Shown: positions 22,493-48,342, counted from the stretch's first letter. The stretch is 64,000 nucleotides of DNA from an uncultured Christensenella sp. (GCA_949290565.1 CASESH010000018.1:1585-65584), one strand, 5' to 3'. Translations and numbers: made by a program. The notes: a model not told the origin generated them from the letters alone.

Positions 22493-24328
22493 TTATTTTT
22501 TATCATTATCATCAATTATAATTTCATCGTCACCCTTGTTGTCATCATCTTTCTTGTCTTCTGCTTTCTTGTTAGCCTCAGCCTCTTTTGAAGCCTCGAC
22601 ATACAACTTTGAAATTATGCTACTTGAAGTTGAAGTCAAATCTTCAAGTGCTTTTTTAATTTGTTCAACATCATCAGTCTTAATCTTGTTTTTGCAATCT
22701 TCAATAGCGTTTTTCAAAGTATTTGATTCTTCTTCGCTCAACTTACTGCCATTTTCTTTAAGCATTTTTTCAAGAGACAAAATCATATTTTCTGCGTTGT
22801 TCTTTTGTTCAAACAACTCTTTTTTCTTTTTGTCCTCATCGGCAAATTTTTCAGCCTCTTTGATTGCTTCTTCAATGTCTTTTTCGCTTAGATTAGAAGA
22901 AGAAGTGATAGTAATACTTTGTTCCTTATTTGTTCCTAGGTCCTTTGCAGAAACATGAACAATACCATTTGCATCAATATCGAACGTTACTTCAATTTGT
23001 GGAACGCCCCTTGGTGCAGGTGGAATGTCAACAAGACTGAATCTTCCAAGAGTCTTATTACCACTAGCAAACTCTCTTTCTCCTTGCAAAACGTGGATGT
23101 CAACACCCGGTTGATTATCAGTTGCAGTTGAGAAAATTTGAGATTTTTTGGTAGGAATTGTTGTGTTTCTTTCAATTAACTTAGTGAAAATACCACCAAG
23201 AGTTTCAATACCAAGAGAAAGTGGAGTTACATCAAGAAGTAAAACATCTTTGACTTCACCAGCAAGAACGCCACCTTGAATAGCAGCACCCATAGCAACA
23301 CATTCATCTGGATTAATGCCTTTAAAAGGTTGTTTTCCTGTAATTTTCTTAACCTCATCAACGACTGCTGGAATACGAGTTGAACCACCAACTAAGATAA
23401 CCTTATCAATTTCATTTAAAGATAACTTACTATCTTTTAAAGCCCTTGTAACAGCCTGACTTGTCTTTTCAACAAGGTCCTCAGTAATGCTGTTGAATTT
23501 TGCTCTTGTCAAATCATATTCAAAGTGTTTTGGACCATTTGCATCTGCTGTAATGAATGGCAAATTAATTGTTGTTTTCATAACGCTAGACAAGTCAATT
23601 TTTGCCTTTTCACTAGCCTCTTTAATTCTCTGCATAGCAAGTTTATCTTTTGATAAATCAATGCCCTCTTTGTTTTTAAATTCAGTAACAATAAGGTCCA
23701 TAATTCTCTTATCAAAGTCATCTCCCCCAAGTCTATTGTCTCCTGCCGTTGCTACGACTTCAAAGACACCATCACCAATTTCAAGTATGGAAACATCAAA
23801 TGTACCACCACCCAAATCGTAAACAAGAATCTTTTGATTTTTGCCATTTTCGACTTTGTCAAGGCCATAAGCAAGTGAAGCAGCAGTAGGTTCGTTTATA
23901 ATTCTTAAAACTTCTAGTCCTGCAATTTTTCCAGCATCCTTAGTTGCTTGTCTTTGACTATCTGTAAAATATGCTGGGACAGTGATAACTGCTTGCGTTA
24001 CTTTTGAACCTAAATAACTTTCAGCATCTTGCTTTAATTTTTGCAAAATCATTGCTGAGATTTCCTGTGGAGTATAACTTTTACCCTCTACATTTACCTT
24101 ATAATCACTACCCATTTCTCTCTTAATTGAGATAATTGTATTGTCTGGATTAGCAACAGCCTGTCTTTTTGCGACCTGTCCTACAAGCCTTTCGCCTTTT
24201 GAAAATGCTACAACTGATGGAGTTGTTCTCTCTCCCTCAGCATTTGGTATGACAGTTGGAGTATTTCCCTCCATAACTGCTACACAAGAATTCGTTGTTC
24301 CTAAATCTATTCCTATAACTTTTGACAT
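22493..24328 (-). CDS. dnaK: molecular chaperone DnaK (Hsp70)
   Basis: [24 protein letters not shown] and [10 protein letters not shown] motifs. Start set to the ATG at 24328 ([10 protein letters not shown]), preceded by AAGGAG 8 nt upstream; the track start is at 24367. Confidence 0.97.
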
Positions 24329-24421
24329 TTTTAATTTCTCCTTTTTATTGTCAATTTTTTTATTCAACTATTTTCTATAAAGAAAGTAGGTTGTTTTTGG
24401 TTTTATTTTAAAATGTATTTT

Positions 24422-24967
24422 TTATTTTGCAACTACAACTTGACTGTATTTGATAATATTACCATTCAAAGTGTACCCAGCCTCAATTTCCTCAACGACT
24501 GTTCCACTTTTATTTTTTTTGTCCTCAACCATAAGCACAGCGTTGTGTTTATCAGCATCAAATTTTTTACCAACACAATCAATTTTTTTAACTCCGAGTT
24601 TTTCAAGTGCAGAAATAATATTTTTTTCAATCATATTAACGCCCTCTAAAACTACTTCATCTTTAATCATTTTCTTTGCTTTTTTAAAAGAATCTAAGCA
24701 AGGTAAAATCGTTTCAAGCGCCTTAGTCATTCCCTCAGTCTTAAAAGCAATTTCAGATTCTTTTGTTCTTTTCCTATAATGCTCAAAATCTTTTTCAAGT
24801 TCTTTGTAGTCATTTAAGATTTTTGCCATTTGGGTTTTAATCCCATCAAACTCCTCTTGACTTAAAACAACTTCCTGACTAGTTTGTTCTACATTCTCAT
24901 CTTTTTTGTCCTGCTTTTCTTGACTAGCATCTTGTTTTAAATCTTCTTTTCTTTCTTCACTAGACAT
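24422..24967 (-). CDS. grpE: nucleotide exchange factor GrpE
   Basis: Acidic N-terminus, a coiled coil and a C-terminal beta domain (GKKFDADKHNAVLMVE). Sits between hrcA and dnaK. The ATG overlaps the hrcA TGA stop (TGATG). Confidence 0.9.
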   Translation of the reverse strand: MSSEERKEDLKQDASQEKQDKKDENVEQTSQEVVLSQEEFDGIKTQMAKILNDYKELEKDFEHYRKRTKESEIAFKTEGMTKALETILPCLDSFKKAKKMIKDEVVLEGVNMIEKNIISALEKLGVKKIDCVGKKFDADKHNAVLMVEDKKNKSGTVVEEIEAGYTLNGNIIKYSQVVVAK

Positions 24968-26013
24968 CAATCTCCCCCCTTATTGAGTTTGTTTTTAACC
25001 TCATCAGTTATAAGTTTTAAAACACTTGCAACACTTGCATAATCAATCCTTTCAGGTCCTATAACTCCAACAGTAGCAATCTTTTCACCATTTAAAATAA
25101 CCGGCGCTTTGATAACTGCACAGTTGCTGAGTTTTTCGTTGTTGTTTTCCTCTCCCAAGTTGACTGTAATTTGTTCACCCTCGTTAGTTGTCATAAGGTC
25201 GCCCAAACTGTCATCATCATCTAAAACACTTAAAATGTTCTTGGCCTTGTTAGTATTGAATTCCGGACTCTCTAACAGTTTGATTAAACCTTGATTGCTA
25301 ACTTTACTCTTAGTCTTGTTATAATAAACTTCCAAGACTTCAAGAACAAGATTAAAAACACTTTCATATTCTTTCATACACTTTTTAATGCTGGAAGAAA
25401 ACAGGTCAATATTTTGATTTAAAAATTTAATATTTTTCCCAACAAAAATATTTGAAAAGACATTACTTGCGTTATCACAATCTTGCTTGGTAATTTCTCC
25501 GTTAGCGCTAATGGTATTAGAAATTGCCCCAGCATTTGTTTCAATAAGTACTAAAACTTGATTGTTTATCAAATAAACTATTTTAATTTGCTCAACAATT
25601 AGGTTTTCAAATCCGTCAAACATAAACACCGTTGGGTAATTTGTTTTTGTGCTGACAACTTTTGAAATACTTTCTACAATCTCGCTAAGACTAGAAGTTC
25701 TTGCAAACAAATCTTCTTTAACGTCTTGCAAACAACCTTCATAAAATTTACTATTTTTTAAAGTTTCATCAACAAAAAACCTGTAACCTTTTGTCGTTGG
25801 TACCCTACCACTAGAAGTGTGAAGTTGTTTTAAATAACCCATAGCCTCTAAGGCGTTCAACTCATTCCTAATCGTAGCAGTTGACAAGTCGTGAAGATTG
25901 GTTTGTTTGACAAATAGACTTGTAATAGGGCTAGCAACTTTAATATAGTTTTCAATCGCACTATATAAAAGTTTCTTTTTTCTATCAGACAACTCTGGCA
26001 AATCATTTGTCAT
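24967..26013 (-). CDS. hrcA: heat-inducible transcription repressor HrcA
   Basis: 348 aa. N-terminal wHTH LSDRKKKLLYSAIENYI..TIRNELNALEAMGYLKQLHTSSGRVPT. First gene of hrcA-grpE-dnaK-dnaJ, with CIRCE upstream. Confidence 0.93.
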   Translation of the reverse strand: MTNDLPELSDRKKKLLYSAIENYIKVASPITSLFVKQTNLHDLSTATIRNELNALEAMGYLKQLHTSSGRVPTTKGYRFFVDETLKNSKFYEGCLQDVKEDLFARTSSLSEIVESISKVVSTKTNYPTVFMFDGFENLIVEQIKIVYLINNQVLVLIETNAGAISNTISANGEITKQDCDNASNVFSNIFVGKNIKFLNQNIDLFSSSIKKCMKEYESVFNLVLEVLEVYYNKTKSKVSNQGLIKLLESPEFNTNKAKNILSVLDDDDSLGDLMTTNEGEQITVNLGEENNNEKLSNCAVIKAPVILNGEKIATVGVIGPERIDYASVASVLKLITDEVKNKLNKGGD

Positions 26014-26076: not shown

Positions 26077-26103
26077 TTAGCACTCTTTATCTTTAAGTGC
26101 TAA
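26077..26103 (-). promoter_or_regulatory. CIRCE operator (HrcA binding site)
   Basis: TTAGCACTC-tttatcttt-AAGTGCTAA is 8/9 + N9 + 8/9 versus the consensus TTAGCACTC-N9-GAGTGCTAA. It lies 64 nt upstream of the hrcA start. An extra TTAGCACT half-site sits at 26053-26060. Confidence 0.88.
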
Positions 26104-26600: not shown

Positions 26601-27527
26601 CTATCTTTGTAATTCTTCTGCGAAGTCATCAACTGACCTTTGAAGATAATCTACATACTTCTTATCTACTGAATAATTTACTTCATCTTTTGTTTGTTGA
26701 GATATTTTATTAACATCTAAACTAGAAAGTTTTTTAGCAAATTCTTCTTGTTCTTTCTTTGAAAAATATTTTTTTAATTCACTTTCACTCTTTACTAAAC
26801 ATGCGATTGTCTTTGAGTCAACTGAATTTGTAACAAAATCGTTAGGATATTTAATTTCTTTTTGAGAACCACTTAAACATTTTTTTAACTTAGTCATTAG
26901 GGCTTGTCTCCTACCTGTGTCAATTTGAAAATTAATACCACTTGCACAGAAATCAGAAGAAATTACACCGTTGGCATGACCATTTTTACCTTGGGTATAA
27001 AAAATCTCATCTAAAAAAACATTATTTTTACAAGCAACATTCATAAGACTTGTAATAATTTTATCTTTAATTGCTTTTAATTCAAAATATTCTAATAAAG
27101 GATTATTTTTATACATTTTGACACTAGGTTTTAATGATTCATCAACAACAAATGAAAGAATTGATTTGAATAAAAATTTGTTGTCATAGTCAAACATAAT
27201 TCCATATTTTTTTCTCAAATCATCATAGAGTTGATAGTAACTAACAGCATGGCATTTCTTTTTACTATAAACTAAACCACTTGTGGTTTTATCTAACTTG
27301 ACAGGCATAAATTGTATACTATCAAGACCAACACTTTCATAAAGTCGTGGCAATAAAACATATGCGTCCATTATACTTTTATAAAATCTATAATTAGGAA
27401 TAATAAACTCAAAATCATCAGTAAATTGACCTTGAATATGCTTTTGATACAAATCTCTAAAATAAGGATTATCAACGTAACCATTCTTGTCATAAGCGAG
27501 GCCAAATGTTTTATAAAATCTTTCCAT
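26601..27527 (-). CDS. hypothetical protein (unknown family), second gene of a two-gene unit
   Basis: Approx 308 aa. Start set to ATG at 27527 (MERFYKTFG) with AAAGGTGA 5 nt upstream; the track uses GTG at 27536. It begins 5 nt after the upstream stop. No motif recognised. Confidence 0.65.
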   Translation of the reverse strand: MERFYKTFGLAYDKNGYVDNPYFRDLYQKHIQGQFTDDFEFIIPNYRFYKSIMDAYVLLPRLYESVGLDSIQFMPVKLDKTTSGLVYSKKKCHAVSYYQLYDDLRKKYGIMFDYDNKFLFKSILSFVVDESLKPSVKMYKNNPLLEYFELKAIKDKIITSLMNVACKNNVFLDEIFYTQGKNGHANGVISSDFCASGINFQIDTGRRQALMTKLKKCLSGSQKEIKYPNDFVTNSVDSKTIACLVKSESELKKYFSKKEQEEFAKKLSSLDVNKISQQTKDEVNYSVDKKYVDYLQRSVDDFAEELQR

Positions 27528-27532
27528 TTTTT

Positions 27533-28441
27533 TCACCTTTTCATTTCTAAATTTTTTCTAACTTTTTGTATTTTATTAATGTCATCTTGTATAATCTGCT
27601 CATAAGCAAAACGATTGAACTTTTTAAAACGATTGCTTAAATATTCAACAAAAGGCTTATCAAATTCATAGCCACAATATACTTCAAACAAATCAATATT
27701 TTCTTGCAATCTAGACTTAGAGAATTCAGACAAAATTTTAATCTTTTCAGGTTGAGAAAACAAACTATTCTGTGAGGACAAAAACCTTTCAATTAAATTT
27801 TGCATATCGTTATCTTCTTTTTGTTCACTCTCTTTATTTTCAAAAGAAAGTCTATTTTGATAATTATGTGAAATAGAAGAAAACAATTTTGGTTTAACTG
27901 AATCTACCTTACCATTATTATCAAGCCCAAGTGCCAAATTACCTGAATTTTCATAATTTCTTGTAATCATATTAAAAATATCAATAATAACTTTTTCTTT
28001 TTGAGCCTTTTCAGTAAAGAAATTAGCCAATCTAACACCATTAGTAGTTTGTTCAAAGAAATCAGAAGTAGGAGTAAAACTTGTATTGTATCTAGTATTT
28101 AACCACTTAGTCAAAGTTATTAAATCTATACCTTCTACTAACAAATTATTGAAAAAAAGTCCCGGTTTATCAAAAATCATAATTGGTAAAAAACAAGGAG
28201 TTTCAATATTAAAAGAACTAGATAAGATAGATGATGATAATATATTAGCATCAATTGTAATTTTTTTATTATCATCATTGTGCAAATTTAAAAGTCCATT
28301 TTTAGATAAGAAGCCATTTTCTTTTAAAGATTGAATTGTTTCTATCACTAATTTGTCATTTAAAATAAATCCATTTTTATCTACTTTTACTTCTTTTCTT
28401 ATAACATCTCTAAAATAATCTTCATATTGGGCATAATTCAT
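27533..28441 (-). CDS. hypothetical protein (unknown family), first gene of a two-gene unit
   Basis: 302 aa with a strong RBS (AGGAGAG) before the ATG at 28441. No motif recognised. A few short stretches resemble the downstream ORF (VDKNGFILND vs YDKNGYVDNP). Confidence 0.65.
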   Translation of the reverse strand: MNYAQYEDYFRDVIRKEVKVDKNGFILNDKLVIETIQSLKENGFLSKNGLLNLHNDDNKKITIDANILSSSILSSSFNIETPCFLPIMIFDKPGLFFNNLLVEGIDLITLTKWLNTRYNTSFTPTSDFFEQTTNGVRLANFFTEKAQKEKVIIDIFNMITRNYENSGNLALGLDNNGKVDSVKPKLFSSISHNYQNRLSFENKESEQKEDNDMQNLIERFLSSQNSLFSQPEKIKILSEFSKSRLQENIDLFEVYCGYEFDKPFVEYLSNRFKKFNRFAYEQIIQDDINKIQKVRKNLEMKR

Positions 28442-28867
28442 TTACTCTCCTATTTAGATAACATCATTACAACAATATAATAGTTTATAAAAGCAAAAAT
28501 TTCAATACCCTTTTTTTTATTTATCTAAATTGAACATTTTTATAATACTTTGTAACAAAAAATAACAAAAATTTACTATAAATAAAGGTCAAAATAAAGA
28601 AAGTTATAAAAATTTAAATTATTTTACAACGGTTGTAAAATAGGAATTTACAACAAAAATTAAAATAATTATAAAATCAAATCTAAGGATTTTACTTTTT
28701 AGTAAATTTTTAGTCAAGGTTTAAAATACTTTAATTAATAATTTTTAAATAAATAAAAGAAGTATTTTCTCTTACTTAAATATTAAAATTGAAAAGAAAA
28801 TACTCCATCTCATATATAAAGCTTTAAAAATATATTTTGTTAGTAACAATTATTGAAATAGCAATTT

Positions 28868-30076
28868 TTACAAATCATAGTTATTAGGGTCGTTATCCTC
28901 TAAATATTCTTCAATAATAAGAGGACGTTTTAGGGCAAGAATTTCTCTTGTTCTTTCTAAATTCTCTGCTTTTTCCCTCAAAACAGTTGCTTTTGCTTCA
29001 AGTTTTGCAAGTCTTTTTTCTTCTTTATCTAACTCATCATTATACTTTATTCTTTTATCCCTAAGTTTTTTTCTGTCTCTTTCTAGTCTTTGGAACATAT
29101 AATGTGAACGTATGTAAGCATATCTTTCCCTTTTTATTCTAGAAAGTATAAGTTCAATTTTTCTTTCGTAAATTCCTCTTGCATAGTGAACTTTTTTAAA
29201 TTTAGACATCAACTCAGTTTTTAAACTAAGCATATGATTAATTAATTTTTCAAGTACCTCTATATGAGCCCAATACCTGCTAGACTGTTCATCAGGAAGA
29301 TTATCATCTTCCTCATCTTCATCTACGACTTCTTTTTTCTCTACTTCTTTATCTTTAAAAAAGTCATGTTCTTGGCCATCTTTTGGAAACATATAATGAA
29401 CAAAAAATTCTATTTTAGGCTTTTCTAATTTTTTTTCAATTTCTTGTATTTTATCTTCGCTTTCTTTAATTTCTTTTTTAATTTTAAGTTCTTCTAATGA
29501 TTCATCTTTTAATATTTCCTCATCTTCTTTACTTAGGTCTTCATCAAGGAAATTTTCTTGTTTTATGCTTTCATTATCATCTTGTTCATCATCTTGTTCA
29601 TCATCTTGTTCATCATCATCTTCATCATCTTTTAATTCTTCCAAATCTTCGCCTTCAAAAATGTCATCATCATCAAAATCTTCCTCATTAAGAGTTAAAT
29701 GATTTGCCTTGTCTATAAGTCGATTAACCTCTTTCTCATTTTCAATCTGTTGTTTTGTAGGTTCATAAATATCCCCTTTTTCAACAGTTTCTTTAAAGAT
29801 TTCATTTGACTGAGCAATTTTATCTTCTATACTATTCATGCTTTTTTCTAAATTGACTTTGTTAGGATAACTATTATCAGTTAATAAATAAACTCTTATG
29901 TAAGATTTGTACAGTCTTAGGAGTAAATCTAACATATTGCTCCTTGCAAAAATATCATTTTCCTTTAAAAGCAAAGTATAAAGATTTTTTCTAGCCACTT
30001 GTAGTGCAAGCCCATAATCTAAATTGTTATTCATTAAATAACCAACAGCACCTTGTTCTCTTATTTCCTTATACAT
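28868..30076 (-). CDS. hypothetical acidic coiled-coil protein with (DDEQ)3 repeat
   Basis: 402 aa with RBS AAAGGAG. The central D/E-rich region includes a perfect 3 x 12-bp DNA repeat (29576-29611). The C-terminal part is a K/R/E heptad-like coiled coil (RLAKLEAKATVLREKAENLERTRE). Confidence 0.65.
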   Translation of the reverse strand: MYKEIREQGAVGYLMNNNLDYGLALQVARKNLYTLLLKENDIFARSNMLDLLLRLYKSYIRVYLLTDNSYPNKVNLEKSMNSIEDKIAQSNEIFKETVEKGDIYEPTKQQIENEKEVNRLIDKANHLTLNEEDFDDDDIFEGEDLEELKDDEDDDEQDDEQDDEQDDNESIKQENFLDEDLSKEDEEILKDESLEELKIKKEIKESEDKIQEIEKKLEKPKIEFFVHYMFPKDGQEHDFFKDKEVEKKEVVDEDEEDDNLPDEQSSRYWAHIEVLEKLINHMLSLKTELMSKFKKVHYARGIYERKIELILSRIKRERYAYIRSHYMFQRLERDRKKLRDKRIKYNDELDKEEKRLAKLEAKATVLREKAENLERTREILALKRPLIIEEYLEDNDPNNYDL

Positions 30077-30215
30077 AAAAAACTCCTTTAACTTAACTTA
30101 TCATATTATAACAAATTAAATTAAATTTTACAAGAATAAAAAAAAATCGACAAAAATTTAAAAAAAACTTAACAAATCATAAACTATAAAAAGTTTTTTT
30201 GTTAAGTTCATATTG

Positions 30216-31355
30216 TTAAATTAATTTTAGAATTATACTATTTAAAACATAATACGCATTTTCACAAACTTTAATATGACCATCTTTAAGAGATATAAAT
30301 CCACGAGAAGATAAAAACTCAATTTCCTTTTGCTTATCTTTCAAGATATGAGTACCAAAAGAGTTATCGTATTTTGATATATCAATTCCTTCTCGTGTTC
30401 TAAGTCCAAGCATTAAAGTTTCTTCTCTTTTCATTTCCAGCGTGATTTTTTCAACTGAATAAACAGGGACTTCATCATTTTGAATTTTTTCAATATACTC
30501 AGAAAAATCTTCGGTATTATTAAATCTAGTGTCATTAAGATAGGAATGTCCCGCAAGTCCAAACGCAAGATATTCTCCCATCTGCCAATAATTCAAATTG
30601 TGTGCACATTCAAAATCTGGCAAAGAAAAATTAGAAACTTCGTACCTATAAAAGCCTGCCTTTTTAAGTTGAGAATAAACAATATTGTACATTTCAATAG
30701 TTTCATCTTCGGTTGGGAATGGAATATTTTCATCTAGCGACATATCGAATAAAGGAGTATTTTTTTCTAATATTAAAGAGTAGGCTGATATGTGAGTAAT
30801 TTTGCTTCTTGTTAAGAACCTAACCATTTTTTTAACATCGAGTATTGTTTGGTAAGGAAGCCCTATCATCATATCAACATTAATATTAATAAACCCGCAA
30901 TCTCTTGCTAATTTAATAGCCTCTTTTAATTGTCTAGCATTATGTCTTCTACCTATTGCCATAAGAACTTTATCATTAATTGACTGTCCTCCAATACTTA
31001 TTCTATTGCAACCTAAAAGCAAATACTCTTTTAATTTTTCTCTTGTCATACTTTCAGGATTACATTCAATAGTAATCTCGGCGTGTTTAGAGAGTTTAAA
31101 ATTTTTTTTCAAAGTGAGCATAATTTTTGTAAACTGCCCTTCATCAAGAGTAGAGGGCGTTCCTCCGCCAAAATAAACTGAGGAGACTCTATAATAGTCG
31201 CCGTATGCCTTTGCTCTCATTTCAATTTCACTGCATAAGCAGTCAACGTATTGAGCCTTTTTGTCCTCCTTATCACAGTACGAAACAAAGCTACAATAAT
31301 TACATTTTTTTTGATTGCAAAATGGAATATGAATATATAAAGATAAATTTTTCAT
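30216..31355 (-). CDS. hemW: radical SAM heme chaperone HemW (HemN-like, oxygen-independent coproporphyrinogen oxidase family)
   Basis: 379 aa. LYIHIPFCNQKKCNYCSF radical-SAM motif and GGGTPS. Immediately downstream of lepA, as in the Firmicute lepA-hemN-hrcA cluster. Confidence 0.85.
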   Translation of the reverse strand: MKNLSLYIHIPFCNQKKCNYCSFVSYCDKEDKKAQYVDCLCSEIEMRAKAYGDYYRVSSVYFGGGTPSTLDEGQFTKIMLTLKKNFKLSKHAEITIECNPESMTREKLKEYLLLGCNRISIGGQSINDKVLMAIGRRHNARQLKEAIKLARDCGFININVDMMIGLPYQTILDVKKMVRFLTRSKITHISAYSLILEKNTPLFDMSLDENIPFPTEDETIEMYNIVYSQLKKAGFYRYEVSNFSLPDFECAHNLNYWQMGEYLAFGLAGHSYLNDTRFNNTEDFSEYIEKIQNDEVPVYSVEKITLEMKREETLMLGLRTREGIDISKYDNSFGTHILKDKQKEIEFLSSRGFISLKDGHIKVCENAYYVLNSIILKLI

Positions 31356-31356
31356 A

Positions 31357-33153
31357 TTAATCTAATTTGAGAATAGTCATAAACGCCTCACTAGGAATCT
31401 CCACTGAACCGACCTGACGCATTCTCTTTTTCCCCTCCTTTTGTTTTTCAAGTAACTTACGCTTTCTAGTGATATCACCACCATAGCACTTAGCAAGAAC
31501 ATCTTTACGCATAGCCTTAACTGTTTCCCTTGCTATAACCTTTGAACCTATACACGCCTGAATTGGAAGTTCAAAAAGTTGTCTTGGAATTACTTCCTTT
31601 AACTTCTCAGCAAGGCGTTTACCTCTTTGGTAGGCGCTATCTTTATGAACAATTATACTTAAAGCATCACACTTTTCATTGTTTAATAAAATGTCAAGTT
31701 TGCACAAATCACTTTTAACATATTTATTAACCTCATAATCAAGACTTGCGTACCCTCTCGAACGAGATTTAAGACCATCAAAAAAGTCATAAACTATTTC
31801 ATTAAGTGGAATCTCATACTTTAAAACAACTCTTTGACTATCTAAGTACTGCATATCAAGATAAACCCCACGCTTGTTTTGACAAAGTTCCATAATATTT
31901 CCAACATACTCAGGTGGAGTATAAATACTGACACTAGCAATAGGTTCTTCAATTCTATTAATATCGGTAACATTTGGGAGTGCTGAGGGATTTGAAACTT
32001 CAACAACACTGCCATCAGTTTTATAAACTTTATAACTAACGCTAGGCGCAGTAGTAATAATGTCAAGATTAAACTCTCTTTCTAGCCTCTCGGTTATTAT
32101 CTCCAAATGCAACAATCCTAAGAAACCACATCTAAACCCAAAACCAAGCGCTGTCGAATTTTCTGGCGTATAATGAATTGAATCATCATTTAATTTTAAC
32201 TTTTCAAGAGCATCTTTTAAATCGTTGTACCTTGCACCATCAGTTAAAAAAATTCCACAATATACCATAGGTTTAATATCTTTATAGCCATCAAGCGGTT
32301 GACTTGTTGGATTGTCAGCATAAGTTATTGTATCTCCAACTTTTGTTTCACTAACCTTTTTTATGCTAGCGCAAATATAACCTACCATTCCACTACTTAG
32401 GCAATCAATTGGCTTTGTTTGAGGAGTGAAAACACCCACTTCGGTAACATCATAAGTTAAACCTGTTTTCATCATTTTAATCTTAGTACCTGTCTTTACT
32501 ATCCCATCAAAGACTCTAACAAGACTGACTGCACCCTTAAAATTGTCATAGTAACTATCAAAAATAAGTGCTTTAAGTGGTAAATCATCACTTCCTTTTG
32601 GACTTGGAATATTGTGAATAATAGACTCTAAAACTTTGTCGATATTTATTCCTTCCTTTGCAGAAATAAGAGGAGCGTCTTGACAAGAAATTCCAATAAT
32701 TTCTTCTATTTCCTTTTTAACTTCTTCAACTCTTGCACTTGGCAGGTCAATTTTATTGATAACAGGAATAATCGTAAGGTCATTTTCAAGAGCAAGATAA
32801 ACGTTTGCTAAGGTTTGAGCCTGAACCCCCTGAGTTGCATCAACTACTAAAATTGCTCCCTCACACGCTTTCAAAGAACGAGAAACTTCATAAGTAAAGT
32901 CAACGTGTCCGGGCGTATCTATTAAGTTAAGCATATACTCCTGCCCTTCATAATTGTAAAACATTCTAGTAGGCGTAAGTTTTATAGTAATGCCACGCTC
33001 TCTCTCAATGTCCATACTATCTAAAACTTGTTCAGTTAACTCTCTTTGAGAAAGCGTACCTGTAAATTCAATCAACCTATCAGCAAGCGTACTTTTGCCG
33101 TGGTCAATGTGCGCTATTATACAAAAGTTTCTAATATTTGCCTTCTTTATCAT
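31357..33153 (-). CDS. lepA: translation elongation factor 4 (LepA)
   Basis: 598 aa. G1 [17 protein letters not shown]3 [11 protein letters not shown]4 NKIDL, and the LepA-specific C-terminal domain (..[16 protein letters not shown]). Confidence 0.97.
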
Positions 33154-36510: not shown

Positions 36511-37212
36511 ATGATTGTTGAGAGTTTTATAGCATTTATGAATAAAATTATGCTCTTTTCTGCCTATGTGAACAACGCCTCTAATTTTCCAAAACCTCTA
36601 ACTCAGGAGCAAGAAAAAGCATATTTTGAAGCGTACAAAAAAGGAGATAAAAACGCAAAAGATAAACTCGTTTCTCACAATTTAAGGCTTGTAGTTCATG
36701 TTGCTAAAAAGTACTGTCAAACTGCCGAAAGCGATGACCTTATCAGTGTAGGTTCAATAGGACTTATTAAGGCGGTAAACACTTTTGACTACGATAAAAA
36801 TACTCAATTCTCAACTTACGCTGCAAGGTGCATAGAAAATGAAATACTTATGCTTCTTAGAGTTAATAAAAAACATATTCCCGTAATGTCGCTAAATGAA
36901 AGTTTAGGTAAAGACAAAGAAGGAAATGATGTGGCTATTCAAGATATTATTCCTGATGAAAACCAGAATGTTTCAGTCCAAGTAGAAAATCAAGTATTGA
37001 CTGAAAAACTTTTACAAATAATTAAGAAATCTCTTAGTCAAAGAGAATATGAAATTATGTGTATGAGATATGGCTTAAACAACAAACCCGTTTACACCCA
37101 AAGGGAAATTGCAAAAAAACTAAAAATTTCTCGTTCATACATAAGTAGATTAGAAAAGAAATCACTCGATATTTTAAGAGAGAAAACAAAAAAAGAAGAT
37201 GTTTATTACTAA
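36511..37212 (+). CDS. sigK: sporulation sigma factor, pro-sigma-K type (uninterrupted)
   Basis: 233 aa. Pro-sequence followed by YVNNASNFPKPLTQEQEKAYF, which resembles B. subtilis SigK YVKNNAFPQPLSSSEEKKYL. Also YAARCIENEILM, GKDKEGNDVAIQDI (SigK-like DKEGN) and TQREIAKKLKISRSYISRLEKKSL. SigE is the closest alternative. Confidence 0.75.
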   Translation: MIVESFIAFMNKIMLFSAYVNNASNFPKPLTQEQEKAYFEAYKKGDKNAKDKLVSHNLRLVVHVAKKYCQTAESDDLISVGSIGLIKAVNTFDYDKNTQFSTYAARCIENEILMLLRVNKKHIPVMSLNESLGKDKEGNDVAIQDIIPDENQNVSVQVENQVLTEKLLQIIKKSLSQREYEIMCMRYGLNNKPVYTQREIAKKLKISRSYISRLEKKSLDILREKTKKEDVYY

Positions 37213-37570: not shown

Positions 37571-37918
37571 ATTAGGCAGACAGGTGGTCGCAGTCCAATT
37601 GTAGTGATTGGAGTGAGGAAAGTCCGAGCTTCATAGAACAGGGTGCTGAGTAACTCTCAGTGAAGGCGACTTTAAGGAAAGTGCAACAGAAATAAACAGC
37701 AAAGCAATGCTTTGCAATGGTGGAAAGGCGGAGTAAGAGCCCACCGACCGACTAGTGATAGTTGGTGCCATGTAAACCCCACCCGAAGCAAGATTAAAAA
37801 GAATCGTTATAAAGTTGTTCGCTAGATTCTTTAACAATATCGCTTGAACTATTTGGCAACAAATAGTCTAGATAGATGACCACCAAATACAGAACTCGGC
37901 TTATAGTTTGCACTAATC
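37571..37918 (+). ncRNA. rnpB: RNase P RNA (bacterial, ribozyme component)
   Basis: Universal P4 strands GAGGAAAGTCCG (approx 37615-37626) and ACAGAACTCGGCTTA (approx 37889-37903). P1 pairs ATTAGGCAGAC with GTTTGCACTAAT, and P2 pairs AGGTGGTC with GACCACC. A strong terminator follows. Track ORF 37631..37837 lies inside it and is spurious. Confidence 0.88.
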
Positions 37919-37957
37919 ATAACTACTTGCAAGTTGCAAGTAGTTATGTTTTTATTT
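37919..37957 (+). terminator. Rho-independent terminator of rnpB
   Basis: 13-bp perfect stem ATAACTACTTGCA-agt-TGCAAGTAGTTAT (37919-37947), followed by GTTTTTATTT. Confidence 0.8.
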
Positions 37958-40840: not shown

Positions 40841-41785
40841 CTAAATAATGTATTTTATCTTGTTTATCTCATCTCTTTCCTCAAATGTTTTAGGAATAAC
40901 AACGTAATCTGGATAAACATAAAATCTCATACCATGACAACTGAAAAAACTGACAAGTCCAAAAATACTAAAAGTAAAAGCCGTTAAGGGTAAAGTAACT
41001 AAAAGAGAAAGAGTAAATGAAAAAACGCAGAAAATAAAATTGACAACAAAAGCGAGTAAAACAAGTAATGTGCTGGTCGAAAAGATACTCCCAAACTTTT
41101 TAAAAATACTTTTAAAATTTGTCTTAATTGAAACAAGAGGATTTTCGTTATAAACAGTAACTGCTGGCAACCAGCACGAAAAGAAAGAATATTTTAAAGC
41201 AACAAAGACAAGCAGAACTCCCAGCACGCAAATTGCTAACAAAAAGTATAAGAAGGAACCGAGCGAAACAAGTCTAATCATTAAATAAATTAATAGCAAA
41301 GTTATTGCGTTGACAGGCAAAAGTACAAAAAATCTAACAAGACTATATAGAGCACTCTTACCCAAATACTTTACAAATTTAACTGTAAAACTGTACTTTG
41401 ACTGACTTGTCATATAGCCATAAACAACTTCATTCATTGGAAGAAGTGCAAGATTAATTAGAAATGGAAAAACAAACAAAATATAAATTGCTAGAAAAAC
41501 AATATTAACATTTAGTTGAGGATTTGAGTTCAATACTGACCAAAAGTTTTCATTAACCTGCTCTATTGAAATGGCAGTTGCGTCTGGCTTTGCAAAAAAG
41601 ATATTGTCTAAAATAGCAAAAAAATCATTAAAAACATTTGCTTGATTTAGTTTATCTATTATTGGTAATGCAATAACAGTACAAACAGCAAGACTTAACA
41701 AAATACAAATAACATAATATAAAAGAACTTTCCAAACATTAGAAAAATTAGAAACAAGTAATCTAAAAGTATTTCTAAAAATCAT
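40841..41785 (-). CDS. polytopic membrane protein, unknown function
   Basis: 314 aa with at least 6 hydrophobic segments (for example VLLYYVICILLSLAVCTVIALPI and LLVLLAFVVNFIFCVFSFTLSLLVTLPL). No family assigned. Confidence 0.6.
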   Translation of the reverse strand: MIFRNTFRLLVSNFSNVWKVLLYYVICILLSLAVCTVIALPIIDKLNQANVFNDFFAILDNIFFAKPDATAISIEQVNENFWSVLNSNPQLNVNIVFLAIYILFVFPFLINLALLPMNEVVYGYMTSQSKYSFTVKFVKYLGKSALYSLVRFFVLLPVNAITLLLIYLMIRLVSLGSFLYFLLAICVLGVLLVFVALKYSFFSCWLPAVTVYNENPLVSIKTNFKSIFKKFGSIFSTSTLLVLLAFVVNFIFCVFSFTLSLLVTLPLTAFTFSIFGLVSFFSCHGMRFYVYPDYVVIPKTFEERDEINKIKYII

Positions 41786-42269: not shown

Positions 42270-42815
42270 TTAATCATTTTTTTTATTTAACTCTTTATTT
42301 ATTTCATCAGCAATTTCATTGCTAGATATTTTTGATTTAGATTTATATTTTAACACGCCAAGTCCAACAAGAATAGAAAGCACGACAGCACAAACATCAA
42401 CAATTATGTTAACACATAAATCAACTCCAAATGACAAGCAAATTGCCTGAGTAATGGCAAGAACTGAACAAATAATTGTAATCCAAAAAGAAAGAGAATT
42501 TACTTTGTTTTTTTCTTCGATGCCTAAATCGTTTGTAATAGAATTAGAAGAATCATCATTTTCATTCATATAAGTAGTATTTGCAATTTCACTACCATAA
42601 CTTTTTGGTACTAAACGAGAAGCCGTTTTTATATTTGTCTGAACACAAGTTGTGTTGTTTAAATTATTGTTTTGATTTTGATTTATCAAAGAATTGGAAC
42701 TGTCGCTAAAATTATTAAAATTAATTTCACTTCCGTCTTCTTGCAAATTATTTAAGGAATTATCAATTATATTAGATGAAATATTATAAGAGTTATCAAG
42801 GCTATTTTTACTCAA
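42270..42815 (-). CDS. membrane protein with an N/S-rich N-terminus and two C-terminal TM helices (holin-partner-like)
   Basis: 181 aa. TTG start overlaps the TGA stop of the BhlA-like gene (ATTGA). TM segments FWITIICSVLAITQAICLSFG and IIVDVCAVVLSILVGLGVL. The function is inferred from context only. Confidence 0.55.
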   Translation of the reverse strand: MSKNSLDNSYNISSNIIDNSLNNLQEDGSEINFNNFSDSSNSLINQNQNNNLNNTTCVQTNIKTASRLVPKSYGSEIANTTYMNENDDSSNSITNDLGIEEKNKVNSLSFWITIICSVLAITQAICLSFGVDLCVNIIVDVCAVVLSILVGLGVLKYKSKSKISSNEIADEINKELNKKND

Positions 42816-43033
42816 TTTTCTCTATCTCCCTTTTTAAGTAGTGTAGAGCGAATCTCTTTTAGTTCTTGCTTAATATCTTCGACAGTATCTAAATGCTGAT
42901 TTAATTTAGAAATAGTATCTTGATATTTTTTTTCTCTCTTAGCACTATCTTTTAACTGATAGACAAGCAAAGAAACAAACAGCACAGCCCAAGCCCCATT
43001 TGTAACTGCTTGGTTAAAAACTTCTTCCCACAT
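42812..43033 (-). CDS. BhlA/UviB-family holin-like protein
   Basis: 73 aa. One N-terminal TM followed by a charged coiled tail. NGAWAVLFVSLLVYQLKDSAKREKKY parallels the BhlA pattern G.FAVLF..LL.Y..K.S..RE.K. RBS not obvious. Confidence 0.6.
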   Translation of the reverse strand: MWEEVFNQAVTNGAWAVLFVSLLVYQLKDSAKREKKYQDTISKLNQHLDTVEDIKQELKEIRSTLLKKGDREN

Positions 43034-43311
43034 AAAATTTAATTAACTGTTTAGAATTTTTTTAAAACCTTCTTTAATTTTTTTTTCATAAATCTTCTTT
43101 TTTTTCATAAACCCTCTACATAATTAAAACAAGACAAAGTTATAATTAATAAATTAGATTTAAAAAATACCATTAAGGCACAAGATAAAAACTAGAAAGA
43201 GTAAAACAAATTAAATAAGAAAAATGTTAAGATAAATCTAGTAAAAAAACTAAAAATTTATATAACTTTGTCTTAAAAAAAGTTAATTTTTTTCACATTT
43301 TAAAATAAAGT

Positions 43312-44778
43312 TTATTTTGGTTGTTTAAAATTAAACTGCAACAAAGTAATGTCAAAATCTTCCAAACTAGAAGTAATATCATATCTAAAAATCGTACCTG
43401 AAATATTAACTCTAATTTTACGCAAATTAGGACTTTCTGGAATCTTGTATGTTCGAACTTTGTCATCAAAATGAATAGTCAAATCAAATTCTTTGTTGCA
43501 AATGACTTCTATATCTTTAAGAATGTTCTTTTGAGTAAAGTTGTCAAATAATAAGTTAGGACTTTCAAACTTTTTGTCAAGTACCGAAGAACCAACTTTA
43601 CCCGTATCATTTAAAACCCATAATTTGTTGCTATTATTTAAAGCAATAACTAAACGTTTGTAAAAAAGATAGTTTACTGAAACCATAGAAACAATATCAA
43701 CGCCATATAAAATATTATACTCTTGTGTTGCTAAATCAAATTCAACAAGCGCGTTATTTGAACTTAAAACTTCATCATTAAAACCAATTTTGCAAGCAAT
43801 GTAAAGTTTATTATCGTGGTAGCAGGTGTTGGCTTGTTCTTGGTCATACTCGGCAAGTTTTTCACAAATTGAACTGTCAACTTTTTTAACATCATAGCCA
43901 TCAAAAGAATAAAGTCCATCTTGTTGTAAAAAATATATTTTTTCTCCACAAATACAAACGCTATCACAATAAATCTTTTGACCTGCGTCATAAATATTGC
44001 TAGTTGTAAAATCACTTTTTAAATAAGTATTAATCTTGCTAATTCCAAAATCTCTAAACACATAAACGTTGTCTAGAAATGAAATCAAGTTTTTTAATTC
44101 GCCCTTATAATCGTTTAATTCTAACATTCCGGCGTCTTCACTTTCGGTAGTGTTCTTTAACCAATCAAGAGGGTTACAGTTGGCGCTGTACCTAACAATA
44201 TAATCCCACTTGGTATCAATAGCAAACAATCTATCATTATGAAAACACACACTTTTAAAACTAGGCGCAGTATCAACTGTGATAGGGTCCTCATCGCAAA
44301 ACCATACAAGCAAGTTATCGCTCTTTGATGAAAAGCCCATAACATCATCACCACTAATTCTAAAATTAATACCAATAGGAGACTCGTTAAAAGTATGATT
44401 AATGCAATAGTAGTCATCATTTAGAAAGAAAAGAGGAGTATAGTAAACTTTTTTATCCTGACAAATGACGACTAAAAAATAAAGAAAAGTTTGGTTATCG
44501 TGACTAAAACATCTATATCTAAAAATTTTTTTAACATTACTAGGAATTGGGTTGCGAGTTACGAAAGTAGAAGGACTAGAATGTAAAGTACTAATTGGAA
44601 TAGTAATTTCCTCTAAACCATTACCCAAGACTAACCTACCTTCCCTAGATTTAAGGTTATAGCAAACGCTAGGATTAACATAGTTGTTATTATAGGCTTT
44701 CTTTTTAGCAAGAGAAGTGGAAAAATTGTCAATAAAAAATTTCAGATTGCCAAAATCATTTTCATCAAAATAATTCAT
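43312..44778 (-). CDS. phage-associated structural protein of unknown type (possible tail/adsorption component)
   Basis: 488 aa from the ATG at 44778 (RBS AGAGGTGG). It is translationally coupled to the upstream gene (TAATG). Beta-rich, non-repetitive sequence. The role is guessed from its position after the head genes. Confidence 0.55.
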   Translation of the reverse strand: MNYFDENDFGNLKFFIDNFSTSLAKKKAYNNNYVNPSVCYNLKSREGRLVLGNGLEEITIPISTLHSSPSTFVTRNPIPSNVKKIFRYRCFSHDNQTFLYFLVVICQDKKVYYTPLFFLNDDYYCINHTFNESPIGINFRISGDDVMGFSSKSDNLLVWFCDEDPITVDTAPSFKSVCFHNDRLFAIDTKWDYIVRYSANCNPLDWLKNTTESEDAGMLELNDYKGELKNLISFLDNVYVFRDFGISKINTYLKSDFTTSNIYDAGQKIYCDSVCICGEKIYFLQQDGLYSFDGYDVKKVDSSICEKLAEYDQEQANTCYHDNKLYIACKIGFNDEVLSSNNALVEFDLATQEYNILYGVDIVSMVSVNYLFYKRLVIALNNSNKLWVLNDTGKVGSSVLDKKFESPNLLFDNFTQKNILKDIEVICNKEFDLTIHFDDKVRTYKIPESPNLRKIRVNISGTIFRYDITSSLEDFDITLLQFNFKQPK

Positions 44779-45338
44779 TAAAACCACCTCTTAGCCTTGA
44801 CGAACGCAAAAGTTTTGTACGCACGGGCGACCTTGTCATCAAAAGCCTTACGATAATAAGCAGAATCATCTAGAACACCACTAAGTAAAAAGAATTCACT
44901 AGCGACACCCATAGCGATAGTTCTAGCGCCGATAAAATTGAACTCGTTGACCTTGTCGTTGATACTGCTTACGCTAGGAATGTAAGAAAAATCAACACAA
45001 ACAGGAATATTTGAATTAAAACAAAGTTTATCATCAGCAATGGAAAATTTAACCTTACCATTTTTAGAAAAAACCTTGTTTACTTTAATTAAGTTTGAGT
45101 GGATTTGACTTAAAGGAAATTCGCAGTCGCCATGACTGACAATAATAGTCACTTTTGAAGGTTTAGATTTAGTAGTTGCCAACTCGTGTAAAATTCCATT
45201 TAATGCAATGAGCAACTTATCGAATTCAGTTTGAACCTCAGAACTAACTTGGTCAGCATTACCTTCAAAAATAGGTTCAAGTCTGTCATAGTTATCTACA
45301 TAAGCACTAGCAAGTTGCAGAATTTCTAAAACAGTCAT
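44778..45338 (-). CDS. phage-associated protein, possible head-completion/connector protein
   Basis: 186 aa with a strong RBS (AAAGGAGAAG). Position downstream of the capsid gene. No motif recognised. Confidence 0.55.
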   Translation of the reverse strand: MTVLEILQLASAYVDNYDRLEPIFEGNADQVSSEVQTEFDKLLIALNGILHELATTKSKPSKVTIIVSHGDCEFPLSQIHSNLIKVNKVFSKNGKVKFSIADDKLCFNSNIPVCVDFSYIPSVSSINDKVNEFNFIGARTIAMGVASEFFLLSGVLDDSAYYRKAFDDKVARAYKTFAFVKAKRWF

Positions 45339-45381
45339 AATACTTCTCCTTTTAAGAAAAGACTAGATAAAGGGGCAAAAG

Positions 45382-45741
45382 TTAAATCCATCTAGTCGTG
45401 TTTGCCTTTTCAAAATTAACAACTCCACCCCGTTTGTCAGCAAAAACTAACTTTTGTTTTAAATCAAAAATATTTTTATTTTTTAATTCTAATTCTTCTT
45501 TTTCTTTAAGTTTTTTGTTATTTTGACTAACTTCCAAAAGAATAGATTTTTTTCGCCTAATATGAGTGTAGAGTGCTCTTTTAAGTGCTAAACAATCTAA
45601 TTTTGTGCCAATACTAAAAGCAAATTGATTTTTGAACTTTGCATAGTAGTTGTTTTTATGATAGAATATAGCATATTCTCTTTCAATTTTTTTTAGTCTT
45701 GAAGATATGTTAAATAAGTCATTTGTAATTAATTTTTCCAT
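45382..45741 (-). CDS. phage-associated basic protein, unknown function
   Basis: 119 aa with RBS AAAGGGG, lysine-rich. Immediately downstream of the capsid gene. Confidence 0.5.
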   Translation of the reverse strand: MEKLITNDLFNISSRLKKIEREYAIFYHKNNYYAKFKNQFAFSIGTKLDCLALKRALYTHIRRKKSILLEVSQNNKKLKEKEELELKNKNIFDLKQKLVFADKRGGVVNFEKANTTRWI

Positions 45742-45770
45742 TTTACCCCTTTGACCTAATCTAAAATTTT

Positions 45771-46937
45771 TTAGTTAGAAGCAACAATCTTTGAAATCTT
45801 GCCTTGTCCACCTGGTCTATCACAAATGAGTTCGGCATATTTTACAAGTGTTGCTGAATATGTTGGATTGTTTGAAGATGGAATTAAAATGTTGCCATTT
45901 TCAGTTTGTAACCATTCCCAATCGCAAAGTTGGTGTAAATTGAAATCTTTGGTGTTAAGTAAGTACATTGTACCACTATCAACAAATCTTTCATAAACAA
46001 CAGGAATTCCTGCATATGTCATTGTCTTGTAACCACCTTCTAAAACTGCAACATCAATGTTTCTTTTATACTTTGACAAGTACTCTTGATAAAGTGTTCT
46101 AACATCTCCTGAAACAGCAATAAAGTCAATTTGATTACCTGTTTCTTCTTCTATTGAATTAAGAGCATTTTGAATTACACTATCGCTAATTGGAGTTGAA
46201 GTTGTACCGGCAAATTCATAAGGATAAAGCCATTTATATGAACTTCTATCTACGCCGTAAATAGTTGAATTAGATGTACTTGTATCAAAAATTCTCTTAA
46301 TACCTGTTATTTCATTATCCTTTGAACCACTTGCATAGAGTTTGTCTCCAACTGCAAAAGTGAATTCCTTGCTAAAAACAACAGTGTTATTCTTTCTATC
46401 TACGAACTCTACAACTACCCCTTCTTCTTCTAAGGCGCCATCAGAATAAATATCTACTTTCATTCCTTCAACCAAGTTTTTGACGCTATCAAATTTTGTA
46501 CCGGCACTTACATCGCTAACAGTTGCAACAAGTCCTGTCCCATCTCCGTATAACATACGGCCAAGATTAAACGAACTTGACTTTATTAAACTTTCCATCT
46601 CGTCGCTTAATAAATTAACAAACGCACCAACATTGGACATACTTGCTCTAATTGCCTTGTCTGAAATTTCAATCTTGCCATACAAGTTTTTTAACCCTGT
46701 CTTGAATTGTAAAAATTTGTGTGAACTTGCACTTGGTAAATTGCCTGTTTCAGTTGTAGCACAAATTCCACCATTTAAACCATATGGGGCTAGTTTGATA
46801 ATCTCTTTACCAAAAACATCTTTGCTAGATTGTTTTATTCTAGAAAGTAAAGCATTTGACTTTAAGTTAAGTTGTTCGCTTATTACTCCTAAATAAACTG
46901 ATTTTAAAGCATTTTCTGCTGATTGAATTGTAACCAT
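45771..46937 (-). CDS. phage major capsid protein (probably HK97-fold)
   Basis: 388 aa with RBS AAGGGGA. Its size, its position after a scaffold-like gene, and the stretches LYGKIEISDKAIRAS..FVNLLSDEMESL, RMLYGDGTGLVATV and C-terminal YSATLVKYAELICDRP resemble capsid-family patterns. Not verified by search. Confidence 0.65.
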   Translation of the reverse strand: MVTIQSAENALKSVYLGVISEQLNLKSNALLSRIKQSSKDVFGKEIIKLAPYGLNGGICATTETGNLPSASSHKFLQFKTGLKNLYGKIEISDKAIRASMSNVGAFVNLLSDEMESLIKSSSFNLGRMLYGDGTGLVATVSDVSAGTKFDSVKNLVEGMKVDIYSDGALEEEGVVVEFVDRKNNTVVFSKEFTFAVGDKLYASGSKDNEITGIKRIFDTSTSNSTIYGVDRSSYKWLYPYEFAGTTSTPISDSVIQNALNSIEEETGNQIDFIAVSGDVRTLYQEYLSKYKRNIDVAVLEGGYKTMTYAGIPVVYERFVDSGTMYLLNTKDFNLHQLCDWEWLQTENGNILIPSSNNPTYSATLVKYAELICDRPGGQGKISKIVASN

Positions 46938-48018: not shown

Positions 48019-48072
48019 AAAAATCCCCTTTTTAAATAAGATAAAAGAATAAACAAAAACTAAAACATTAGA

Positions 48073-48340: not shown

Positions 48341-48342
48341 TT

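Follow-up and report, generated by a model that had tools for sequence, protein, structure and literature searches.

A probable pseudokinase pair with a predicted atypical kinase fold lies between hemW and hrcA in an uncultured Christensenella

Three unannotated genes occupy the hemW/hrcA junction

The window analyzed here, a 64,000-nucleotide stretch of DNA from an uncultured Christensenella sp. (GCA_949290565.1, CASESH010000018.1:1585-65584), carries three genes between hemW and hrcA that we refer to as P1, P2, and P3. An initial annotation, made from the sequence alone, had taken them for an accessory system (defense, sporulation, or stress-related) inserted into a conserved block of genes, an interpretation for which we find partial support. 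We propose instead that P2 and P3 are probably tandem paralogues of a vertically inherited family with an atypical kinase fold, whose members would be pseudokinases in this organism, and that P1 is their likely partner. On the minus strand, the order of genes is MgsA, a GDPD protein, lepA, hemW, P1, P2, P3, hrcA, grpE, dnaK, and dnaJ, and the open reading frame (ORF) map places those that matter most for the argument as follows (positions are counted from the first nucleotide of the window).

31357-33153, minus strand: lepA, from the ORF map
30216-31355, minus strand: hemW, with Radical_SAM and HemN_C domains
28868-30076, minus strand: P1, 402 amino acids (aa), from the ORF map
27533-28441, minus strand: P2, 302 aa, from the ORF map
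26601-27527, minus strand: P3, 308 aa, with an ATG start as in public gene calls
24967-26013, minus strand: hrcA, downstream of P3

As can be seen, three intact genes do stand between hemW and hrcA, interrupting an adjacency that is preserved in a relative (L011), where the two genes are 297 bp apart. The tight coupling reported for the two proteins of ~300 aa is also real, with only 5 nucleotides (nt) between the stop codon of P2 and the ATG of P3 (AAAGGTGAAAAAAATG) and with a ribosome-binding site for P3 that overlaps the P2 stop. An alternative GTG start for P3 at 27536 would extend the protein to 311 aa (26601-27536), while public calls begin at the ATG at 27527. Good ribosome-binding sites precede P1, P2, and P3 (AAAGGAG, TAGGAGAG, and AAAGGTGA, respectively), and the three AT-rich spacers, described earlier as 140-590 bp long, measure 139, 426, and 587 bp and have a GC content of 0.18-0.20. 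The genes themselves are poorer in GC (0.25-0.27) than the flanking housekeeping genes (0.31-0.37). Their description as genes of unknown family holds for the libraries that we searched, since no family in Pfam, NCBIfam, PADLOC, or PHROGs matched P1-P3 above noise.

P2 and P3 as diverged tandem paralogues

Paralogy of P2 and P3, which had been suspected from a few similar stretches, lies below the detection limit of BLASTP, where the comparison of the two proteins gives a nonsignificant E-value of 0.13. It is, however, borne out by profile methods. A hidden Markov model (HMM) of 14 family members that did not include P2 nevertheless finds P2 in two collinear pieces, with a score of 28.5 bits and an E-value of 4.8e-8 for 1000 targets, and P3 scores 262 bits against the family HMM. 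When P2 was compared by hhalign with 20 other, catalytically intact members, the two aligned over aa 53-187 with a probability of 95.5% and an E-value of 1.6e-8. P1, used as a negative control in the comparison with the family, reached a probability of 0.2% and is unrelated to it. As judged from these profiles, P2 and P3 are diverged tandem paralogues of one unannotated family.

A family confined to one clade and, mostly, to one chromosomal site

Word-indexed protein searches, which covered 5.8 billion proteins, returned relatives of P2 and P3 from the same species only. The same block is found in three more assemblies of this species. Proteins from L001 and L002 share 99.7-100% identity with those of the window, while L003 is a strain variant (~98%). 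An exhaustive phmmer search with P3 among 1.84 billion representatives yielded 16 proteins at E ≤ 1e-3. Starting from HrcA, we also retrieved 15 loci from metagenome-assembled genomes of related uncultured Christensenellales (HrcA 66-84% identical) and read their neighborhoods by tblastn and ORF maps, and further contexts were obtained from the contigs of phmmer matches and from a metagenome scan with the family alignment. The relatives of P2 and P3 found by these means belong to related uncultured Christensenellales only, and no source names any member of the family. The family is found at the hemW/hrcA junction or just upstream of hrcA in no fewer than 14 related genomes or contigs. The arrangements seen in relatives are listed below.

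L005-L010: hemW, one family gene of ~310 aa, hrcA
L026 and L029: a single copy between hemW and hrcA
L032: two copies and a DUF975 gene between hemW and hrcA
L004 (sister species, HrcA 84%): hemW, a P1-like gene (222 aa), two full copies, a split P2 orthologue, a split P3 orthologue, hrcA
L027: lepA, hemW, eight translationally coupled copies, feoB, a lipoprotein gene, hrcA
L018: seven tandem copies directly upstream of hrcA
L024: eight copies directly upstream of hrcA
L019, L020, L022, and L028: tandem arrays on short contigs
L030: one member beyond dnaJ, after rpsU
L011: hemW and hrcA adjacent, with no family gene at the junction

In L018 and L024, hemW has been lost from the neighborhood and the family still adjoins hrcA. 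Since the same site is occupied in so many relatives, the genes are not a recent insertion in this genome, contrary to what had been proposed. Mobile insertions are expected to show a patchy distribution and varying sites, while the chromosomal site here is constant across the relatives, which points to vertical inheritance with a copy number changing between zero and eight, that is, to a long-standing resident of one clade. The initial annotation had itself considered that the genes might be ancestral at this position and have an established function. The conserved position agrees with the first part of that suggestion, but conservation is clade-wide and not order-wide, and no function has been established.

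Signs of mobility were sought in several ways. No relatives of the family were found in phages and plasmids (by tblastn) or in viral contigs (by the scan), and no convincing match was found among the viral structures of BFVD. The locus itself is not flanked by meaningful direct or inverted repeats, and no integrase, transposase, or other mobility gene appears in the ORF map of the window, where the flanks are lepA, hemW, and the hrcA operon. The three AT-rich spacers hold no recognizable relics of deleted copies, and the only conserved DNA in them is that of the hrcA promoter and CIRCE (controlling inverted repeat of chaperone expression) operator.

These observations bear directly on the idea of an accessory defense or conflict system, such as an anti-phage system or a toxin-immunity pair, inserted in the heat-shock block. 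That idea draws on the resemblance of the predicted fold to the toxin kinases HipA and HipT (see below), on the tandem, fast-diverging paralogues and low GC content typical of conflict loci, and on the signs of recent exchange between lineages seen in one array member (synonymous divergence, dS, of 0.027 versus ~1). We nevertheless consider it very unlikely, since PADLOC returned noise only (E = 0.022), phages, plasmids, and viral contigs hold no relatives, and the window offers no small antitoxin-like gene beside the pair, no integrase, and no flanking repeats. Moreover, occupancy of the same locus in at least 14 related genomes indicates vertical descent, and the copies in the window lack residues that a kinase toxin needs. 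The locus may thus serve as a warning against taking every break in conserved synteny for a defense island.

A predicted atypical kinase fold

We aligned 16 (alignment A1) and 43 (A2) members of the family, as well as 20 catalytically intact members (A5). Three blocks are conserved, consisting of a strand ending in Lys together with a helix 'DAEiLLSQiY', of 'LDxAxxNxDRHxxNxfY', and of 'iD(y/f)xxSG'. On the basis of their sequence, we read these blocks as the strand-3 Lys, the helix-C Glu, the DRHxxN catalytic loop, and the DFG-like metal-binding Asp of a kinase. DRHxxN is the catalytic-loop signature of PI3K/PI4K.

While no recognizable motif had initially been seen in the pair, structural models of P2 and P3 show an atypical kinase fold of the HipA/CtkA/PI4K type. 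The AlphaFold2 models have predicted local distance difference test (pLDDT) values of 79.9 for P3 and 83.3 for P2, with predicted template modeling (pTM) scores of 0.83 and 0.85, respectively, and the motifs sit on the expected elements of the models, namely a strand, a long helix, helix E, a loop, two strands, and the Asp. When the models were compared by Foldseek with the PDB, the top 22 matches for P3 and the top 35 for P2 were CtkA, HipA, HipT, and, for P2, PI4K, the top matches having probabilities of 0.95-1.00. The best match in both cases is CtkA (3akk), with E-values of 3.5e-4 for P3 and 8.3e-5 for P2 and template modeling (TM) scores of 0.47-0.53. For P2, HipT (4e-4) and HipA (5e-4) are also matched and PI4K comes later, and for P3, CtkA, HipA, and HipT are followed by mTOR, PI3K, PI4K, and CotH (the latter with an E-value of 0.04-0.05). 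As for sequence profiles, the 43-member alignment A2 matched one kinase among PDB sequences, the actin-fragmin kinase 1cja, from helix C to the catalytic loop (E = 4.2e-4). CtkA and actin-fragmin kinase are published structural neighbors of PI4KIIalpha (PMC3974213), and the atypical branch indicated by sequence is therefore also the one indicated by structure. At the level of modeled fold and motifs, the family is a member of the kinase-like fold superfamily, and its fold would be bilobal, as in HipA, HipT, CtkA, PI4K, and actin-fragmin kinase.

The family can be compared with several known systems. CtkA (JHP940) from Helicobacter pylori (PDB 3AKJ, 3AKK, and 3AKL), an atypical Ser/Thr kinase, is alike in being a single domain of ~300 aa that stands alone without an antitoxin. 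Its identity to P2 and P3 in structural alignments is only 9-14%. However, CtkA is encoded on the tfs3 integrative and conjugative element (ICE) and requires type IV secretion (PMC5536186), whereas the locus in the window has neither a mobile element nor a secretion system, the family occurs in tandem arrays, and the copies in the window are without catalytic residues. The toxins HipA and HipT, of the HipBA and HipBST systems, are matched in fold through structures 3dnt, 3dnv, 2wiu, and 4pu5 (HipA) and 7wcf, 8ezr, and 7ab3 (HipT), but the N-terminal subdomain of HipA is absent, and the family is multicopy and vertically inherited at one locus while toxin-antitoxin systems are mobile. No small helix-turn-helix ORF (as HipB) and no HipS-like ORF lies beside P2 and P3 or beside the arrays of relatives, where the neighbors are hemW, P1, and hrcA. 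Actin-fragmin kinase from Physarum (1CJA) is the only solved protein reached by a sequence profile, the family motif 'DAEiLLSQiY' being paired with 'iESEtFCSLLC' in helix C and 'LDxxxxNxDR' with 'LDVIVNNSDR' in the catalytic loop. In contrast to the family, this kinase and PI3K/PI4K are eukaryotic and have extra domains, and there is no sign here of a counterpart to their actin-fragmin or lipid substrates. We did not assign the family to HipA, CtkA, or the actin-fragmin kinases.

Loss of catalytic residues in the sub-lineage of the window

The full pentad of canonical catalytic residues (K, E, D, N, D) is present in 23 of the 43 members aligned in A2 and is invariant in all 20 members of A5. 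In the remaining 20 of the 43, both the Lys and the catalytic-loop Asp are gone, and 18 of these have lost the DFG-like Asp as well. The intact group consists of the single-copy genes of L005-L010, L026, and L029, seven of the eight copies of L027, and copies on L019, L020, L022, L025, and L028. Its members would be ATP-dependent phosphotransferases, most likely protein Ser/Thr kinases. The degenerate group comprises P2, P3, both full copies of L004, every copy of L018 and L024, and P0004, which is the unsplit form of the L004 P3 orthologue. At the pentad positions, P2 has H, N, E, N, and L, while P3 has P, Y, V, E, and D, and only the DFG-like Asp (in SSDFCASG) remains in the latter. The four motifs of each protein lie at the following positions.

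28277-28294, minus strand: P2, strand 3
28223-28255, minus strand: P2, helix C
27929-27979, minus strand: P2, catalytic loop
27869-27898, minus strand: P2, DFG-like motif
27396-27413, minus strand: P3, strand 3
27339-27371, minus strand: P3, helix C
26997-27047, minus strand: P3, catalytic loop
26937-26963, minus strand: P3, DFG-like motif

Because the pentad has been lost, we infer that P2 and P3 would be unable to transfer phosphate in the canonical way. They would most likely act as non-catalytic binding or scaffold modules, that is, as pseudokinases. The degenerate copies cluster in a crude neighbor-joining tree, in which long-branch attraction is possible, a pattern consistent with one ancestral catalytic loss followed by duplication. 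In the sub-lineage of the window, the catalytic residues would have been lost before or during duplication. Intact arrays, such as that of L027 with its seven intact copies out of eight, and all-degenerate arrays (the window, L004, L018, and L024) are found at the same chromosomal site, a natural contrast that makes the family a convenient system for the study of how bacterial pseudokinases arise and act.

Degenerate copies could be compared between L018 and L024, where seven orthologous pairs show ratios of non-synonymous to synonymous divergence (dN/dS) of 0.07-0.20 at a dS of ~1, with a value of 0.02 for hrcA. The degenerate copies in these two arrays are clearly under purifying selection and are not junk. 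A further observation concerns a single pair, L018:7389-8438 and L024:9281-10330, which is 99% identical with a dS of 0.027, while dS is 0.5-1.3 for the neighboring pairs and hrcA. Such a contrast suggests that one member of the array was recently exchanged, or gene-converted, between lineages.

Selection on pentad-less copies would also be compatible with P2 and P3 being enzymes that use non-canonical residues, in the manner of SelO, SidJ, or WNK-type kinases, for phosphorylation or another nucleotide-dependent modification. P3 retains the DFG-like Asp together with the SG downstream of it, and bacterial kinase folds with altered chemistry are documented (SidJ, PMC6858067). However, the pentad of P2 is degenerate down to the metal-binding Asp, and the pentad-less copies, which are mutually only 10-35% identical, do not evidently share other polar residues that could take the place of the pentad. 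We therefore regard continued enzymatic activity of this kind as improbable, and prefer to view P2 and P3 as pseudokinases.

P1, a probable partner of the array

P1 is an acidic protein, separate from the pair, that evolves very fast and is basic in its C-terminal part. It can be divided into an N-terminal part of ~65 aa, an insert of ~180 aa with an acidic low-complexity region, and a C-terminal part of ~130 aa that is basic (25% Lys and Arg). Its initial description as an acidic protein of 402 aa with a perfect repeat was accurate, Asp and Glu making up 43% of residues 120-270.

29582-29617, minus strand: perfect (DDEQ)3 repeat of P1, aa 154-165, with a 12-nt period in the DNA

Three of the five differences between P1 and its counterpart in L003 lie in or beside this repeat. 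For the coiled coil that the initial annotation ascribed to P1, the only match was a weak one to the DUF7310 coiled-coil family (E = 0.022), and the N-terminal 132 aa of P1 had no match among PDB sequences. The word-indexed search of the 5.8 billion proteins found nothing for P1, low-complexity words having probably flooded the candidates. Its sole relative is a 222-aa ORF in the sister species (L004:4745-5413), the first gene of the L004 array, which is similar at the N terminus (35% identity over 63 aa, E = 1e-7) and at the C terminus (E = 2e-8) but is without the ~180-aa insert that holds the acidic region. This P1-like gene ends 12 nt before the first kinase-like copy. Since it heads the same operon, P1 probably belongs with the array as a partner and is not independent of it, and the arrangement suggests a functional link between P1 and the degenerate-kinase arrays of this sub-lineage.

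Expression signals set the genes apart from the heat-shock regulon

The expression signals detected around P1-P3 are the following.

30105-30133, minus strand: promoter-like site of P1, sigma-A-type, TTGTAA-17-TATAAT with TG, by consensus match only
28756-28813, minus strand: terminator-like AT-rich hairpin with a U-rich tail after P1, by folding
28477-28505, minus strand: promoter-like site of P2, sigma-A-type, TTGAAA-17-TATTAT, by consensus match
26135-26108, minus strand: hrcA promoter, TTGACT-16-TATAAT, preceding CIRCE
26077-26103, unstranded: CIRCE operator with one mismatch, downstream of P3 and the only one in the window

The hairpin after P1, with a folding energy of -17.6 kcal/mol (z = -3.6; none of 200 shuffled sequences folds as well), separates P1 from the P2-P3 unit. 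A terminator scan using a GC rule, which misses this hairpin, found none, and folding revealed no convincing terminator after P3. The GGTATTGAAA core of the P2 promoter matches the conserved -35 region found upstream of the family gene in relatives. When seven orthologous intergenic regions were aligned, TTGAAAA-N17-TGTATAAT proved to be invariant upstream of the family gene. This conserved promoter (TTGAAA-N17-TGnTATAAT) is of the sigma-A type with an extended -10, and not of the sigma-E or sigma-K type. The intergenic DNA of L005-L010, L026, and L029 (alignment A7) displays a conserved hemW terminator hairpin and then the invariant promoter before the family gene. In the window, the translationally coupled P2 and P3 would be expressed from a sigma-A-type promoter of their own.

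In every related locus examined, hrcA is separated from the family genes by CIRCE, and the DNA of the hrcA promoter and CIRCE is ~80% conserved across relatives. Because it is downstream of P3, the operator marks the boundary of the heat-shock regulon and leaves the three-gene unit outside. Control of P1-P3 by CIRCE was rejected, since the operator is downstream of these genes here and in relatives. A broader version of the same idea holds that the proteins are heat-shock or stress regulators tied to hrcA-grpE-dnaK-dnaJ, which might for example modify HrcA or the chaperones, and the persistence of the family next to hrcA even where hemW is missing (L018 and L024) could be taken to favor it. 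We find this hardly credible, given that CIRCE and the hrcA promoter always intervene, which leaves the family genes outside the CIRCE-controlled unit, that in L027 the array has remained beside hemW, with feoB and the lipoprotein gene between it and hrcA, that the L030 member lies beyond dnaJ, and that L011 and L017 have hrcA without the family upstream.

A role in sporulation had also been suggested. P2 and P3 could be spore-coat kinase-like proteins, akin either to CotH, which goes with CotG and CotB, or to CotS-type proteins, with P1 as a structural or substrate partner. The Firmicute spore kinases CotS/YtaA and CotH are indeed the closest conceptual precedent for a partly dead kinase family, since bacterial spore kinase families include predicted pseudokinase subgroups and fast-evolving members (PMC2860764). 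In addition, the host is a Firmicute with a SigK gene 6.4 kb from the locus, coat proteins evolve fast, and CotH is among the weaker fold matches. The conserved promoter, however, is of the sigma-A type, the best fold matches are CtkA, HipA, and HipT instead of CotH or the spore kinases, which belong to other branches of the fold (APH-like, with CotH matched weakly at E = 0.04), and neither a Pfam match to CotH or APH nor any other sequence match was found. In addition, P1 is poor in Ser and Thr (6% together), unlike the substrates CotG and CotB. A spore-coat function is therefore, in our view, quite improbable.

A pseudokinase pair and its rival, decaying relics

Considered together, the evidence makes it likely that P2 and P3 are tandem paralogues of an atypical-kinase-fold family that is vertically inherited at the hemW/hrcA junction in a clade of low-GC uncultured Christensenellales, in zero to eight tandem copies, and that they are pseudokinases with P1 as a probable partner. 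Several findings weigh against this reading and concern either the fold or the constraint on the genes of the window. As regards the fold, it rests on predicted structures from shallow alignments (16 sequences) with TM-scores of only ~0.5, and the model of P2 owes part of its shape to the family alignment. The match to 1cja is fragile, its E-value being 0.34 with the 16-member A1, and it is absent with the 20-member A5, a profile of intact members that matched no kinase among PDB sequences. The comparison of Escherichia coli HipA with the family profiles gives nonsignificant hhalign probabilities of 0.1-0.4%, although the sole local alignment does pair the two catalytic loops, D309-G-H-A-K-N of HipA with D-R-H-x-x-N of the intact members. 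Finally, no Pfam kinase family, HipA_C (at E ≤ 1 to 5), or Act-Frag_cataly was matched by P1-P3 or by the two overlapping alignments of 16 and 20 members. As regards the role, pseudokinases can keep unusual activities, and "non-catalytic" is not a proven property of P2 and P3.

The evidence for constraint on the genes of the window is weak. Between the window and L003, P1-P3 show 14 non-synonymous and 8 synonymous differences, while hrcA, grpE, and dnaK show 1 and 8. The single non-synonymous difference in the flanks (K11I) falls in a probably untranslated extension of the dnaK ORF. The mechanically called dnaK ORF (22493-24367) begins at a TTG located 13 codons 5' of the public start, from which the protein has 611 aa. 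In L003 (1179-2090), a deletion of 1 nt at window position 27801 (CAAAAT to CAAAT) frameshifts P2, leaving a 215-aa ORF and a remainder, which could represent a real inactivation, phase-like variation, or an assembly error. In the sister species (L004:7833-9736), the orthologues of P2 and P3 are each split into overlapping ORFs (of 95 and 211 aa and of 157 and 185 aa, respectively), and window and L004 orthologues are only ~28-34% identical, compared with 84% for HrcA, 91% for LepA, and 96% for DnaK. This is a very fast-evolving locus, in which individual copies may be decaying in some strains.

Taken at face value, and together with the loss of catalytic residues (P3 retaining only the DFG-like Asp), these features are those of relics, with P2, P3, and perhaps P1 drifting into pseudogenes after inactivation of an ancestral kinase. 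Other evidence speaks for genes that are still maintained. The ORFs are undisrupted not only in the window but also in L001 and L002, which are independent assemblies, and an unsplit 329-aa P3 orthologue of the L004 type is found in other samples (P0004 and P0023), so some of the splits in L004 may be strain-specific or assembly errors. P3 alone differs from its L003 counterpart by 7 non-synonymous and 6 synonymous changes, which corresponds by estimate to an omega of roughly 0.3 and is not neutral. In addition, the AlphaFold2 models are confident, strong ribosome-binding sites and a promoter have been retained, and the pentad-less arrays of L018 and L024 are clearly under purifying selection. 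On balance, decay into pseudogenes seems unlikely to us, and we retain the view of P2 and P3 as pseudokinases.

A bolder proposal, which we offer tentatively and regard as doubtful, is that, once catalysis had been lost, the kinase fold was retained and multiplied into arrays of two to eight strongly diverged pseudokinase paralogues, which purifying selection maintains. P2 and P3, together with the clade-specific P1, would then make up a system for recognition or scaffolding that is not enzymatic and that has no described counterpart in bacteria. If this were true, the arrays could, for example, supply a set of specific binders, decoys, or regulators that act on targets of the ancestral kinase. 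More generally, three ORFans become part of a testable, previously unannotated atypical-kinase-fold family confined to uncultured gut-associated Christensenellales, the practical importance of which is moderate, the organism being uncultured.

Other features of the window

Elsewhere in the window, a SigK gene is present on the plus strand at 36511-37212 (NF004471, 267.8 bits versus a cutoff of 252), divergent from MgsA and 0.4 kb from it, which implies that the lineage has or had endospore machinery. Downstream of SigK, the plus strand carries an RNase P RNA of bacterial class A (37572-37920, 283 bits). The GyrA ORF (59045-62713, minus strand) encodes 1222 aa, but its DNA_topoisoIV domain begins at residue 447. 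The first 446 residues, which have no Pfam match at E ≤ 0.1, could be an unusual extension, an insertion, or a fusion. Prophage-like genes are found at 42270-52474, and ORFs without a family match in this region are at 40841-41785, 43312-44787, and 48343-49920. The recognizable genes of the prophage-like region are listed below.

42270-42815: holin-like protein
45771-46937: podovirus-type major capsid protein (E = 8e-73)
50942-52474: terminase large subunit

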